7,292 nucleotides of DNA from IMG/VR virus record IMGVR_UViG_2690315994_000013. One strand, written 5' to 3'. Under the pieces are notes generated by a model. The model did no database searches. It saw nothing but the letters and a program-made list of their open reading frames with translations, and was not told the DNA's origin. A program made the translations under genes and the position numbers. Shown here in pieces: positions 2,851-7,292 of the stretch. Position 1 is the first letter of the stretch. Every line of letters starts with the position of its first letter. The stretch is from a virus (Duplodnaviria > Heunggongvirae > Uroviricota > Caudoviricetes).

Positions 2851-2878
2851 AAAAACAAAACCCGCCGAAGCGGGTTTT
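2851..2878 (-). terminator. Rho-independent terminator (copy 1 of a duplicated hairpin)
   Basis: Minus strand: aaaacccgc-ttcg-gcgggtttt followed by gttttttc. The core cccgccgaagcggg recurs at 4209..4222. Confidence 0.6.
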
Positions 2879-2892
2879 GTCAGTACTGAATA

Positions 2893-3042
2893 TCAAGCTG
2901 CGTGCTTGCCACTACAACTGCAAAGTGGGATCGGGAAAGGCTTCCCTTTTTTCGCGTGGCGCATTACACCATCTACACACACAGAGTAGCGAAAAATGAT
3001 CTCACATGGACAGCCACATTTGCGACAGGTACCCATTGCCAT
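2893..3042 (-). CDS. Small Cys-rich protein (49 aa from ATG 3042; 60 aa if GTG 3075), possible zinc ribbon
   Basis: MAMGTCRKCGCPCEIIFRYSVCVDGVMRHAKKGKPFPIPLCSCSGKHAA has 8 Cys including CxxC-type spacing. It lies between the peptidase terminator and terminator copy 1. SD is weak, so coding status is uncertain. Confidence 0.3.
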   Translation of the reverse strand: MAMGTCRKCGCPCEIIFRYSVCVDGVMRHAKKGKPFPIPLCSCSGKHAA

Positions 3043-3185
3043 GATTTCGTTTTCCCTGCTCACCTGTGAATCCACACAGGTTGCACTTTGTTGGGAGAAC
3101 CACTACACTTCGCTTGTCTACAAAAAGTGTTGTGATTGGATTATCTCCATACACTACGGAATGTGTTAGCGCACTTTCCGTCCCT

Positions 3186-3211
3186 AAAAGCCCTGTTAGC
3201 GCAGGGCTTTT
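3186..3211 (-). terminator. Possible weak terminator/hairpin at the end of the HTH-peptidase operon
   Basis: Minus strand: aaaagccctg-cgctaa-cagggctttt, overlapping the peptidase stop codon. Only about 4 U after the GC stem, so termination efficiency is uncertain. Confidence 0.35.
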
Positions 3212-3686
3212 ACATATAAAAATCGAACGACATCTGTTGTGTTCTCACGCCAATTGTTTCCAGTACGATATCCGCAAATGTATCTGCCTGCCATTCTGCA
3301 TCCTCAATACGAGTAGGTTCTTTAACTGAAAAGTGTAAAACTGCTTTGTGTCCAAGAAGCAAATGACCTAGCTCGTGGAAGATAACAGCAAGTGCATGCT
3401 CTTCCCCAAGGCAAGCATTCACATATATTTTATTGGGAACCGTAATTGTTAGAGAAGCGGGGTCACAATGTCCGATAGTTAGATCATACGTCAGAGCCTC
3501 CCACTCTTTGTCGGTCCTGACGTCAAGAGTAACCCCATAAATTGACAGGCTTTCAAAGAACATATCATAACGCTTTCTTTTGCGCTTTGAGGCTGTAAGA
3601 CCAATAGCATTACAGAAGTTTATAGCTCTGTAGGCTATTTCTTCTTCTTGCATCGGTGACACCCTGTTACCTCTCATTTGATACAT
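3210..3686 (-). CDS. ImmA/IrrE-family (M78-like, DUF955-type) zinc metallopeptidase, 158 aa
   Basis: HExxH motif (FHELGHLLLGH) with a downstream acidic residue pattern typical of ImmA/IrrE peptidases. The start ATG 3686 is 2 nt after the HTH gene stop, with a GAGGGG SD inside the HTH gene 3' end. A hand count on about 100 nt gave roughly 41% G+C versus roughly 57% in a sample of the DUF968 gene. Confidence 0.75.
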   Translation of the reverse strand: MYQMRGNRVSPMQEEEIAYRAINFCNAIGLTASKRKRKRYDMFFESLSIYGVTLDVRTDKEWEALTYDLTIGHCDPASLTITVPNKIYVNACLGEEHALAVIFHELGHLLLGHKAVLHFSVKEPTRIEDAEWQADTFADIVLETIGVRTQQMSFDFYM

Positions 3687-3688
3687 AA

Positions 3689-4048
3689 TTACCCCTCATT
3701 GTTATTAATCTTTTGCAATAAATCTGCAAAACTCTTTAGCTGTTCCGGCGTAAACTGCGACTTAGCGAATCCCGCTACAAGCATTTTCTGTTGCTGAGAC
3801 AAACCGTTTACTGGAACTGAGTCATTCGCAACTGCCGCTAACTCCTGTAACCCTTCAATTTCTACACCTTTGGCCTTGAAGTAAGAATCAATCTTCTTAA
3901 CCCACTTCAGAGGTATTTTTTTGCTACCAGTTTCTAAACCGCTAAGAAACGCTGGCGTAGTGCCCAGTTCTTGAGACATAGTCAGAAGAGTACTGTCAGT
4001 ATCGATCCTCGCTTTTCTAACGGCCTTACCGAATTCAGTGAGTGCCAT
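3689..4048 (-). CDS. XRE/Cro-CI-type helix-turn-helix transcriptional regulator, 119 aa
   Basis: N-terminal segment (FGKAVRKARIDTDSTLLTMSQELGTTPAFLSGLETGSKKIP) fits the XRE HTH pattern. GAGGA SD 7 nt upstream of the ATG. First gene of a two-gene operon with the peptidase. Confidence 0.8.
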   Translation of the reverse strand: MALTEFGKAVRKARIDTDSTLLTMSQELGTTPAFLSGLETGSKKIPLKWVKKIDSYFKAKGVEIEGLQELAAVANDSVPVNGLSQQQKMLVAGFAKSQFTPEQLKSFADLLQKINNNEG

Positions 4049-4075
4049 GATTTTATCCTCAATTTGTTGATTTAG

Positions 4076-4098
4076 CAGACTTGCCTAACGCAAGCCTG
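4076..4098 (-). promoter_or_regulatory. Imperfect inverted repeat between promoter and RBS of the HTH gene (candidate operator)
   Basis: cagActtgc-ctaac-gcaagCctg: 9-bp arms with one mismatch and a 5-bp spacer, placed where an autoregulatory operator would be expected. Confidence 0.3.
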
Positions 4099-4124
4099 AT
4101 GGGCGCTTAAATTCTAATTCCTAA

Positions 4125-4152
4125 AATTTACCATATACGAAAGCAAAGTAAA
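4125..4152 (-). promoter_or_regulatory. Putative sigma70 promoter of the HTH-peptidase operon
   Basis: Minus strand: TTTACT (-35-like), 16-nt spacer, TGgTAAATT (extended -10) in an AT-rich intergenic region about 80 nt upstream of the HTH start. Confidence 0.4.
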
Positions 4153-4190
4153 CCTTTTTAGTTAAAAAAATCTCCTTTAAGGGAATTTTT

Positions 4191-4224
4191 TTCACAAAAA
4201 GAACAAACCCCGCCGAAGCGGGTT
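4191..4224 (-). terminator. Rho-independent terminator downstream of hokD (copy 2 of the duplicated hairpin)
   Basis: Minus strand: aacccgc-ttcg-gcggggtt followed by tgttcttttt; same cccgccgaagcggg core as at 2861..2874. Confidence 0.55.
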
Positions 4225-4292: not shown

Positions 4293-4448
4293 TTACTCCT
4301 CAGGTTCGTAAGCTGTGAAGACAGCGACCTCCGTCTGGCCGGTTCGGATTCGTACCTCGCAGAGGTCTTTCCTCGTTACCAGTGCCGTCACAATGACGGT
4401 TAAACAGATGACGATCAGGGCGATTAGCATCGCCTTTTGCTGCTTCAT
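4293..4448 (-). CDS. hokD: Hok/Gef-family membrane toxin, HokD (RelF)-like, 51 aa
   Basis: MKQQKAMLIALIVICLTVIVTALVTRKDLCEVRIRTGQTEVAVFTAYEPEE matches my recollection of E. coli K-12 HokD/RelF essentially residue for residue. AAGGAG SD upstream of ATG 4448. The ORF-track 70-aa version begins at an in-frame upstream ATG (4505) with no obvious SD. Confidence 0.85.
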   Translation of the reverse strand: MKQQKAMLIALIVICLTVIVTALVTRKDLCEVRIRTGQTEVAVFTAYEPEE

Positions 4449-4739
4449 AGCCTGCTTCTCCTTGCCTTTCGGCACGTAAGAGGCTAACCTACGTGTGTAG
4501 AGCATAGATATGGCCTCAGATTAATGTTAAGCGTCTTGCCGGACGCGTAATGTTAACTGGGGCTTTTCTCTATCTGCCTTTTGGTGTTCATGCCTGAGAC
4601 AGATAGCCTCAAGCACCCGCTGCAATTCTACTTAACTCTCCTTTTCCCGCAAACCGTTTTTATCCCCAGCGGCAAATCGAATACACCACCAGCGCCACCG
4701 CCATCGCAATTCCTACCGTTGTTAATGCTTCAGGCCAGG

Positions 4740-5523: not shown

Positions 5524-5554
5524 TCACTCTCCTTTGATGCGAATGCCAGTGGTA
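5524..5554. repeat. 31-bp direct repeat, copy 1 (tcactctcctttgatgcgaatgccagTggta)
   Basis: Identical to 6018..6048 except one base (T/C). Covers the last codons (...GIRIKGE*) of the 165-aa gene and the RBS of the 87-aa gene. Confidence 0.85.
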
Positions 5555-6021
5555 CTCATTCTCCTGATTTCCCAGAGCACACGAGGAACACCACCGTTTC
5601 CGACCGGATCGCGCTTACTCCGCATGGCGACGCTTGATTCCGCCCAGCTTTTTCTTGGAGGAAGCTCTTTCACACGAACAAAACCAGCTGCGCGAAGAGA
5701 TGCTCCTGATTCATCTGCCTGGGTGTACGTAATACAACGTTGATAACCCATAGCCTTTGCTGCCCGCCAGACAGCACCATAAAGCGCGCTGTTAGCGTTG
5801 CGTTCTCCTGTGGTACATGTGCGATTTACTTCAAGCGTTAATCCATCGTCCAAATGTCGTGCAACAGGTCTACCGGCTGTCGCCACACCTATCAATTCTC
5901 CGGCATCATTTCTCAGACCAATGCTGAATTTATGCCCCACCGGGGGTTTATTGTGTCGGTGATGTCTGGATATAAACGCCTTCGCAACACGAAGAGTAAC
6001 CGGTGAAATCTGCACTCTCAC
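5524..6021 (-). CDS. Hypothetical protein, 165 aa (possibly GNAT-like fold; unverified)
   Basis: Continuous ORF bracketed by 31-bp direct repeats. Start GTG (6021 or 6015) preceded by AAGGAGAG. A central segment (GVATAGRP...NANSALYGAVWRAAKAMGY...ASLRAAGF) is loosely reminiscent of an acetyltransferase core; this is a weak impression only. Confidence 0.5.
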   Translation of the reverse strand: MRVQISPVTLRVAKAFISRHHRHNKPPVGHKFSIGLRNDAGELIGVATAGRPVARHLDDGLTLEVNRTCTTGERNANSALYGAVWRAAKAMGYQRCITYTQADESGASLRAAGFVRVKELPPRKSWAESSVAMRSKRDPVGNGGVPRVLWEIRRMSTTGIRIKGE

Positions 6022-6536: not shown

Positions 6537-7292
6537 TTACCCCCTGAAGCCCGGCGGAATTTCAGTGTCCGGTTCAGAAATGTGATTCACGCAACGCTGC
6601 GCAGGCGAACGCCCCAGGCGGATAACCAGTTCATCCCATTTTTCCCGGAGTTTTGCCGGACTCATGATGTTTTTTACCCAGAACGAATCCCGCTGGAGAC
6701 GCCCAAACATTTCACAAATTTGTCTGTGAGTTCTGCCATCCAGCATCCGCATTGTGCGAACGTCATTGGCCCATGCTGTCCAGTTGGGTTCTTTCGGTCT
6801 AGTGATCTCGCCATCATCGCTGGCCGCCTGCTCGTAAAGACTCACGATTCGTCCCCAGATCCACTGTGCGCACACCAAATCTTCCTGACTTCCCCACTGG
6901 CGTTTTTTCGCACTGAACACAACCGCGTCAGGGTGTCGGGTTAAAAAATTCTGTTCAGCCGTCTGCGGGTCCGGTTGCGAAGCGTCCGGACAAGAAGATC
7001 TTTTATCTGACGGATCAGGTTTTAATACTGACGGATCGGGGTCAATCATCGCCCCCCTAATCGGCAGTTTTTTATCAACGGTTGATCCATCAAAATTTGA
7101 CGGGTCAACCGTTGAGGGGTCAATATTTGACGGGTCAACTGTTAACGGGTCATTTTTTGCCGGGCTAATTTTTCTTTTCGGTTTATATGACTCACGCGCC
7201 GCCGCCGCAGCTGCTTCGAGTTTTTCCACATTAAGCCGATAGATATTGCTTACATTACGCCCACCGACCTTACGCTCTTCCTTCGTCAGCCA
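6537..7292 (-). CDS. Replication initiation protein, O-like with DnaT-like C-terminal domain (5' end lies beyond the window)
   Basis: The frame stays open to the window edge (the ORF-track M at 7229 is an internal GTG). The C-terminus (...VNHISEPDTEIPPGFRG) resembles the E. coli DnaT C-terminus as I recall it (...SEPDSQIPPGFRG). An iteron array lies inside the gene, encoding the TVDPS/NIDPS/TVDPS/NFDGS linker repeats. Confidence 0.7.
   Translation of the reverse strand, partial: WLTKEERKVGGRNVSNIYRLNVEKLEAAAAAARESYKPKRKISPAKNDPLTVDPSNIDPSTVDPSNFDGSTVDKKLPIRGAMIDPDPSVLKPDPSDKRSSCPDASQPDPQTAEQNFLTRHPDAVVFSAKKRQWGSQEDLVCAQWIWGRIVSLYEQAASDDGEITRPKEPNWTAWANDVRTMRMLDGRTHRQICEMFGRLQRDSFWVKNIMSPAKLREKWDELVIRLGRSPAQRCVNHISEPDTEIPPGFRG
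7082..7153. repeat. Iteron array (candidate phage replication origin inside the initiator gene)
   Basis: Five 12-bp palindromic boxes of form TTGAnnnnTCAA at exactly 15-bp spacing (7082, 7097, 7112, 7127, 7142): ttgatccatcaa, ttgacgggtcaa, ttgaggggtcaa, ttgacgggtcaa, ttaacgggtcat. Followed by an AT-rich stretch at 7154..7190. Confidence 0.65.

Follow-up and report, generated by a model that had tools for sequence, protein, structure and literature searches.

A conserved prophage trio of an XRE regulator, an ImmA/IrrE-type peptidase and a small basic protein preceded by a structured leader

Gene pairs of an XRE-type helix-turn-helix (HTH) regulator and an M78 metallopeptidase are among the commonest unexplained gene pairs of prophages, and are usually called 'a regulator' or counted as toxin-antitoxin (TA) systems without a known output. 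Such a pair is found in the 7,292-nucleotide (nt) stretch of DNA from the IMG/VR virus record IMGVR_UViG_2690315994_000013 analysed here (the window), as part of a cassette of ~1.35 kb (2851-4224, minus strand) that also encodes a Cys-rich protein of 49 amino acids (aa). The three open reading frames (ORFs) lie on the minus strand where a first-pass annotation, made from the letters alone, had placed them. The question raised by this locus is what the pair controls. Here, an output appears identifiable, namely a tiny conserved protein missed by annotation pipelines, which would be guarded at three levels, first by a repressor and the protease paired with it, then by a terminator followed by a structured leader, and finally by a probable antisense RNA.

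The three genes and their synteny

The peptidase ORF (3686-3210, minus strand) encodes a single-domain ImmA/IrrE-type protein of 158 aa (Peptidase_M78/COG2856) with HELGH at residues 104-108. Profile searches agree with the metallopeptidase assignment made at first pass, as Pfam Peptidase_M78 (PF06114) is matched at 24.6 bits (E = 2.4e-5), above its cut-off of 22, and the phrog_87 'metallo-protease' at 7e-17. Residues H104, E105, H108, E128 and the stretch E131-W-Q-A-D135-x-F137 are invariant in 32 homologs of 37-84% identity; the protein carries the family's HExxH, the downstream Glu ligand and the E-x-x-A-D/N-x-F-A motif. Its fold is similar to that of solved family members, the nearest being CapP, IrrE and PrpR. 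A relationship to Lit/Peptidase_U49 was considered and rejected; some homologs have faint precomputed matches to this family, but a search with the window protein did not bring it up at E <= 0.1. The ATG, preceded by GAGGGG, lies 2 nt past the HTH stop codon, which bears out the tight linkage of the two genes. In RefSeq (WP_014640513.1) the peptidase starts at an internal Met (3653) and has 147 aa. The 11 residues 5' of this start (MYQMRGNRVSP) are conserved across genera, with R5, G6, R8 and V9 kept in at least 90%, and the 158-aa form starting at 3686 is therefore likely the true product.

The XRE-type HTH protein (4048-3689, minus strand) has 119 aa, with the HTH at about residues 5-58. Although the Pfam cut-off expected to be passed was missed, the assignment is supported by a PADLOC match (HTH_VI, 1e-6), by alignment to the HTH of ClgR and by RefSeq annotation. 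The protein is more conserved than the peptidase (e.g. 70% vs 56%), and its C-terminal part contains a conserved motif, GLSxQQQMLVAGFAxSxFT (residues 82-100), in a region that by analogy may correspond to the dimerisation and cleavage region of relatives.

The small ORF (3042-2893, minus strand) encodes a basic protein (8 K+R vs 2 D+E) with a CxxC...CxC signature and no hydrophobic helix, predicted to be all-beta (predicted local distance difference test score, pLDDT, 80.6). It is a real gene under strong purifying selection, because its ratio of nonsynonymous to synonymous substitution rates (dN/dS) is 0.01-0.2 and most substitutions fall at third codon positions. The protein family comprises at least 183 clusters, every one labelled hypothetical, and has two subtypes, one with CxxC...CxC in gamma-proteobacteria and a Cys-free one in Burkholderiaceae, Pseudomonas and Neisseria. 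Common to both is a core of the form [EQ]VI[FY]R-x-x-IT-x-K-x-GK-x-I...G-x-PF-x-I. The name 'Cys-rich ORF' thus describes the window protein, but since Cys-free homologs exist, the cysteines are not the conserved core. Searches with the window protein matched no Pfam family and returned no structural neighbour. A relationship with the small zinc-binding prophage proteins RalR/Lar, YdaE or YnfU was rejected, as no homology was detected by hhalign (probabilities of 1.7%, 0.3% and 18%, respectively). The frame is unannotated in most E. coli RefSeq records and in the Klebsiella phage MK422450. An annotated 62-aa ORF of this phage (QBQ71937.1) was considered as the third gene and discarded; it is unrelated to the window ORF and spans the structured spacer, while the unannotated 49-aa frame (7979-8128) is the conserved one.

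Conservation of the trio was evaluated in a species scan of one genome per species, which comprised 80 loci; the small ORF was called by tblastn at E <= 1e-3, and flanking genes were identified from precomputed neighbour annotations. A scan of genome contigs with a single protein had given no match, while an alignment-based scan recovered the loci. In nearly all 80 loci an HTH gene lies directly 5' of the peptidase gene, with stop and start codons that abut or overlap. The small ORF is at the expected place in 29 of the 80, that is, in essentially all loci with a peptidase at least 38% identical to the query, so that the co-occurrence of the trio elsewhere, put forward at first pass as a check, was found. 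In all distant loci that were fetched, the HTH protein has 116-128 aa and the peptidase 147-163 aa, and a spacer of ~150-220 nt precedes a small ORF that encodes 41-61 aa. The trio is kept as a unit in differing prophages (lambdoid, P2-like, Mu-like or near integrases) of gamma- and beta-proteobacteria, from Escherichia to Neisseria and Burkholderiaceae, and the flanking genes have nothing in common across these contexts. In Klebsiella phage ST13-OXA48phi12.4 (MK422450), where the cassette lies between a dinI-like gene and sppA, the HTH protein and the peptidase show 86% and 84% aa identity to those of the window, and the DNA similarity continues through the spacer into the unannotated homolog of the small ORF.

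The small ORF can also be found apart from the HTH/M78 pair. Cys-free homologs without the pair follow a CopG/BrnA-like pair in Achromobacter, adjoin a divergent gene of a tRNA-integrated element in Stutzerimonas, and occur on a Sphingobacterium phage contig. In Providencia, leader and small ORF are tandemly duplicated behind a single HTH-peptidase pair (L045 2980-3640; L128 5480-6008).

The window shares 99.7% identity with a prophage beside potC in E. coli FDAARGOS_536. In the K-12 prophage Qin the gene order is ydfU-rem-hokD, as described at first pass; the window ceases to be homologous to K-12 between positions 2794 and 4196, and the cassette therefore occupies the place of rem. It is an accessory module as proposed, but one that replaces rem and was not simply added. 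Elsewhere, the slot between hokD and the DUF968 gene contains nothing (an O157 prophage), a 130-aa hypothetical protein (strain D10) or rem (strain YZ3E2001). Among 5,426 complete E. coli genomes the cassette was found at 60 places in 56 (~1%), compared with ~10,700 places in 4,715 genomes for hokD. Moreover, the FDAARGOS_536-type prophage has separate regulators ~6 kb from the cassette. A role as core prophage regulator, which would have spoken against the accessory nature of the cassette, is not in agreement with these data. Both junctions are present in 49 genomes, which indicates that a single insertion gave rise to the E. coli allele, which then spread along with the prophage; carriage on plasmids was looked for and none was found. 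With a near-identical cassette in 48 E. coli genomes and the diverged trio in many genera, the cassette is not a chance assembly, and it is a mobile accessory module (moron) in a variable slot of lambdoid prophages.

The description of a low-GC, self-contained cassette with its own promoter and terminators (2881-2854 and 4222-4209) holds, the GC content being 42.3% as compared with 52.1% and 49.5% in the flanks. The terminator scan gave a strong intrinsic terminator that closes the cassette (2852-2881, minus strand), with a 12-bp stem and a T-run, and the hokD terminator at the other end (4222-4209, minus strand). These two near-identical terminators sit within the left-hand and right-hand copies, respectively, of a 27-nt direct repeat that brackets the cassette (2850-2876 and 4198-4224, 93% identical), which suggests recombination between terminator sequences as the route of insertion. 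In the Klebsiella copy of the cassette the end stem is similar and the loop is different.

Operator, leader and antisense promoter

Upstream of the HTH gene a promoter with an extended -10 can be read from the sequence (4151-4123, minus strand), as proposed at first pass: the -35 TTTACT (4151-4146) is separated by a 17-nt spacer from TGgTAAATT (4131-4123). The -35 is overlapped by a candidate operator palindrome, AACT-AAAAA-GGTT (4162-4150, minus strand), so that promoter and operator together take up 4123-4166. The palindrome overlaps the -35 in most lineages. Of 30 independent loci, 16 have its strict form, AAC[CT]-N5-[AG]GTT, at 62-113 nt 5' of the HTH start codon, where shuffling gives an expectation of 0.42, and most of the remaining loci have variants with one mismatch. 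The AACC-N5-GGTT palindrome is hence the natural operator candidate for the HTH protein. A motif in the loops of the hairpins T1 and H2, described below, was rejected in this role, as the upstream palindrome differs from it and is constant across lineages while the loops vary.

Between the peptidase gene and the small ORF lies a conserved, structured spacer of ~167 nt with four hairpins. T1 (3185-3212), directly 3' of the peptidase stop codon, is an inverted repeat of the form AAAAGCCCTG-loop-CAGGGCTTTT that resembles a symmetric, bidirectional terminator. It is followed by H2 (3156-3181), whose 10-nt loop repeats that of T1 directly (TGCGCTAACA on the minus strand), by the long hairpin H3 (3094-3148, minus strand; GGAGA...TCTCC with an inner helix), and by H4 (3062-3081), a palindrome CTGT-N8-ACAG that weakly resembles a LexA box and abuts the -35 of the antisense promoter described below. 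The small ORF may be seen, as first supposed, as the only constant cargo of the cassette, but with T1, the leader and an antisense promoter intervening it is not a simple third cistron.

Pairing in the leader was tested on 13 sequences with slid-partner controls and 500 shuffles. Of the cells, 93.4% are paired, compared with 35-49% when the partners are slid, and 13 pairs are changed on both sides, compared with 2-6 in these controls; none of the 500 shuffles reached the observed covariation score. T1 is kept in all lineages with differing stems (helix 1 is 100% paired), H2 has compensatory changes in 5 of 8 pairs, and H4 shows covariation in 4 of 5. In Pantoea (L054) both halves of the H4 palindrome are changed and the hairpin is kept. 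In H3 and H4 the tolerated pairs are G.U rather than A.C (24 to 1), which argues that these helices form in the sense-strand RNA; for H2 the count (5 to 6) favours neither strand. With a covariance model made from the 13 sequences, the full leader was recovered at 103-175 bits from seven loci outside this set, and from none of the four empty-slot controls. Neither the leader nor the predicted antisense RNA matched an Rfam family.

Within any one locus, T1 and H2 share the same loop on stems that are mutually unrelated; between lineages the loops differ. They read UGCGCUAACA in the window, GUUGACGC in L031, the reverse complement of GUUGACGC in L055, UUUGCGG in L040 and UUUACGG in L056; the loops can thus flip their orientation with the stems unchanged. 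A concerted change or flip is seen in the window and in L031, L055, L040, L056, L048, L052 and L082. Pairing of the loops with the HTH leader or with the start of the small ORF was sought by eye and discarded, since the single match, of a GUUAG loop to the HTH leader of the window, failed in other lineages.

The most conserved positions of the spacer read as a sigma-70 promoter on the opposite strand. In the window, this sigma-70-like promoter (3081-3109, plus strand) consists of TTGCAC (3081-3086), a 17-nt spacer and TACACT (3104-3109), and faces the 3' end of the peptidase gene. In nearly all of ~30 lineages, the spacer has its best promoter-like site on this antisense strand, 41-61 nt from the ATG of the small ORF, with the motif TTGCnn-17-TAnACT in enterics, TTGCnT-16-TATAAT in Vibrio, Alteromonas and Orbaceae, TGGACA-17-TATACT in Neisseria and TTGACA-17/18-TAyyAT in Burkholderiaceae. 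The stand-alone units of Achromobacter and Stutzerimonas also keep a T1-like hairpin and the antisense promoter, at an offset of 45-46. From the promoter and the terminator we infer an antisense RNA of ~100 nt (3116-3216, plus strand), which would run from the antisense promoter through H2 to T1 and be complementary to the leader of the small ORF; its predicted folding has a minimum free energy of -35.5 kcal/mol (z = -5.4). A sense sigma-70 promoter for the small ORF was also sought in the spacer and gave no consistent candidate, TTGACG-N8-TATAGT being wrongly spaced.

A proposed switch and competing readings

The arrangement most closely resembles ImmR/ImmA of ICEBs1 from Bacillus subtilis, in which the gene of an XRE repressor is followed by that of a single-domain COG2856/M78 peptidase of ~160 aa (ImmA has 169 aa) in an autoregulated operon on a mobile element. 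ImmA cleaves ImmR, IrrE cleaves DdrO and CapP cleaves CapH, in each case in the C-terminal dimerisation region (PMC13228613; PMC2701414); cleavage of the HTH protein described here would follow by analogy. The cassette differs in its position off the immunity/integrase locus in a nin-like region, in the presence of separate regulators, in its restriction to ~1% of related prophages and its occurrence in lambdoid, P2-like and Mu-like phages, and in a dedicated small-protein output behind a structured leader. With the slot empty or otherwise filled in related prophages and the cassette in 56 of 5,426 genomes, the HTH protein is no master repressor of the ImmR type, and the cassette does not govern the life cycle of its element.

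The cassette also differs from CapH/CapP and from DdrO/IrrE (PprI) of Deinococcus. Besides the peptidase domain, CapP and IrrE contain HTH and GAF domains as well as a groove that binds single-stranded DNA (ssDNA), and CapP has a cysteine-switch loop in addition (PMC13228613), whereas only the 158-aa peptidase domain is present here and PADLOC matches capP at E = 0.0035 over ~38 residues. Likewise, no immune operon follows as for CapH/CapP, but a 49-aa ORF, and the flanks differ in every context. The first-pass comparison with CapP was consequently not borne out, the peptidase being single-domain and ImmA-like. The three-component COG2856-Xre TA systems, Rosmer RmrA/spr1629 and PD-lambda-2 share with the cassette a location on mobile elements and the linkage of M78 and Xre HTH domains to a third component that is presumably harmful. 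Makarova 2009 predicted such COG2856-Xre systems with RelE or PIN toxins (PMC2701414), and PD-lambda-2 joins a fused Xre-peptidase to a HigB-like toxin. In these systems HTH and peptidase are fused (~360-400 aa) and RelE, PIN, HigB or other toxins usually lie upstream, whereas here the genes are split, a 40-50-aa beta protein is encoded downstream and an antisense promoter is present. The matches to fused proteins (RmrA, E = 1e-3; NF052239, 16 bits vs a cut-off of 335) are confined to residues 103-142. Finally, the SOS-linked type I TA loci tisB/istR-1, symE/symR and dinQ/agrB and the prophage pair RalR/RalA resemble the control proposed for the cassette, in that both a repressor and an antisense RNA directed at a long 5' leader hold a small protein in check, in a prophage setting; the antisense RNA of the cassette is a predicted one. 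RalR is a small Cys-containing, non-membrane toxin (PMC4041452). Compared with these loci, the protein of the cassette is not hydrophobic and is unrelated in sequence to RalR, YdaE and YnfU, and the putative repressor is an XRE protein encoded by the module together with its own protease, not LexA. In the searchable literature, neither the trio nor its RefSeq proteins nor the family of the small protein was found described.

On this basis we give a probability of about 0.5 to a reading in which derepression by an ImmR/ImmA-like switch turns on a small basic effector, with additional gating of the kind known from type I toxins. In the first unit, the XRE repressor would bind AACC-N5-GGTT over its own -35 and keep the operon nearly silent; upon a signal, which may be DNA damage or phage infection, the co-translated single-domain M78 peptidase would cleave the conserved C-terminal region of the repressor, and the promoter would fire. 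The second unit would be built like a type I TA locus. Transcripts would read through the leaky T1 and the structured leader to the small ORF, while a constitutive antisense RNA, starting in the leader and stopping at the bidirectional T1, would pair with the leader and block leaky expression, so that only strong derepression of the first unit would outrun it. The small protein, a basic beta or zinc-ribbon protein, would be the output, most likely a growth-arresting or nucleic-acid-binding effector that aids the prophage or its host in damage or superinfection. The stacking of autorepression, leaky terminator, leader and antisense RNA suggests a potent product. Among the functions proposed at first pass, a damage-sensing switch that controls the small ORF appears to fit the sequence anatomy best.

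Several observations weigh against this reading. The HTH protein scores below the Pfam cut-offs (HTH_31, 15.9 vs 27), and the peptidase is devoid of the GAF/HTH sensor domains by which CapP and IrrE sense ssDNA. No sense promoter 3' of T1 is consistent across the ~30 lineages, and read-through is assumed in its place. The H4 palindrome is conserved at -39 to -45 from the small-ORF ATG in Enterobacterales only, and its LexA-like score of 10.4 bits compares with at least 13.1 for a set of bona fide boxes; among 200,000 random 20-mers, eight score as high as the H4 palindrome. Classic, membrane-active type I toxins are hydrophobic, whereas the small protein is not. Furthermore, the antisense model alone gives no explanation for the concerted, identical loops of T1 and H2. 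Kissing of sense and antisense RNA via a YUNR loop would account for the tolerance of either orientation, but not for the match between both loops.

The same wiring could serve anti-phage defence or superinfection exclusion, with infection activating the protease and the small protein aborting the infection or blocking the incoming phage. We consider this possible rather than probable. It would suit the patchy distribution (~1%) and the accessory or defence-type slots in which the trio is found, namely the variable hokD-DUF968 slot, the neighbourhood of a reverse transcriptase-trypsin gene in Yersinia and the cos-proximal region by the portal gene of a P2-like Providencia prophage; the P2 gpA-gpQ hotspot for defence-type cargo has been defined in PMC9122126. 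Location is guilt by association, however, and several contexts are of the SOS type (dinI, umuDC, SRAP, cho). Xre-peptidase proteins do participate in PD-lambda-2 defence, and the PADLOC check proposed at first pass returned weak, partial matches to HTH_VI, capH, capP and RmrA, but these cover the HExxH region or the HTH only and no complete known defence system was matched. Alternatively, two independent selfish units may travel together without regulatory flow between them, a COG2856-Xre type II TA pair, in which the peptidase would be the toxin and the HTH protein the antitoxin, and a type I-like unit of small ORF and antisense RNA. COG2856-Xre pairs have been predicted as TA systems (PMC2701414), a Brucella pair has been studied as such (PMC10538038), and one source labels a homolog 'toxin' (P0009); T1 parts the two units, and the small-ORF unit stands alone, follows a CopG/BrnA-like pair and duplicates by itself. 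Yet order, strand and spacer length of the trio are the same over deep divergence (29 of 80 loci), a near-obligate linkage, and the leader 3' of T1 folds as sense RNA according to its G.U pairs although no sense promoter was found there, which makes two separate units unlikely.

The least probable of the readings considered makes the small protein not the output but a helper of the switch, which could act as anti-repressor, activate or inhibit the protease, or serve as the sensor, with the regulon of the HTH protein elsewhere in the prophage or host. ImmA requires an external activator such as RapI, and the single-domain peptidase of the cassette has no sensor domain of its own. The HTH protein and its operator are also unusually conserved across genera, as would suit a repressor with further conserved targets, but a second copy of the palindrome was not seen in the window, the differing flanking genes offer no conserved external target nearby, and the small protein also occurs without an M78 or HTH partner.

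Going beyond the derepression switch preferred here, the trio might represent an undescribed, widespread proteobacterial prophage system, in which an ImmA-like protease/XRE switch licenses a new family of effectors, basic beta (zinc-ribbon) proteins of 40-50 aa that a cis-antisense RNA would restrain as well, the concerted loops being a co-evolving step of RNA or DNA recognition and the outcome abortive infection or damage-triggered growth arrest. We put this forward tentatively and with some doubt. In any case, the cassette offers a compact, clonable model for the activation of single-domain ImmA-type proteases that have no ssDNA-sensing domains, for the role of the new small-protein family and for combined gating by protein and RNA. 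If defensive, the small protein would define a new class of small effectors in prophage-encoded immunity; if linked to the SOS response, the trio would form a LexA-independent branch of damage responses in enteric bacteria, Neisseria, Haemophilus and Burkholderiaceae.

Genomic surroundings

The trio lies beside an integrase in a P2-like prophage of Yersinia, beside the portal gene in a P2-like prophage of Providencia, within the tail genes of a Mu-like prophage in Neisseria meningitidis and, in Enterobacteriaceae, in a prophage region flanked by SRAP, dinI and umuDC. In Serratia and Pantoea it adjoins SOS-type and tail-fibre genes, and in Orbaceae, Cupriavidus and Parashewanella the contexts vary, two of them being near integrases. 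Genes of the SOS type (SRAP/YedK-like, dinI, umuD/umuC-like, cho) neighbour it in several Enterobacteriaceae, Cupriavidus and Serratia (L031-L035, L055, L134, L043, L132). A serine protease gene of the SppA/S49 or SDH type adjoins the module in the Klebsiella phage (L002, 9480-10475), in L023 and L025 (a 331-aa ORF) and in Serratia (L132, 6338-7360); in the Klebsiella-type variants it is divergent from the HTH gene. In the P2-like prophage of Yersinia (L027), a 552-aa fusion of reverse transcriptase and trypsin (402-2060), probably a defence-type reverse transcriptase, adjoins the integrase and the trio. The same locus has a second LexA-box-like site 17 nt downstream of the first; in the window, 3062-3081 is the best-scoring site of this kind.

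All long ORFs of the window are on the minus strand, in agreement with an early-right/nin-like region of a lambdoid prophage. Their order is an O-like replication gene with iterons, DUF977-like and Mom-like genes, hokD, the cassette, an 87/119-aa ORF (phrog_1212), DUF968, rusA and Q (L001 being the corresponding FDAARGOS_536-type prophage). An Rfam sok match (4443-4560) reaches 47.8 bits against a gathering score of 59 and is truncated where the searched stretch ends; its position, upstream of the hokD leader and overlapping it, is that expected for a hok/sok locus. The match of a 165-aa ORF (5524-6021) to the Mom family is below the threshold (22.8 vs 27.1 bits). Within the O-like replication gene, 7075-7173 contains about five iterons with a period of 15 nt (TTTGACGGGTCAAyy), and iterons inside this gene are the usual arrangement of a lambdoid origin.

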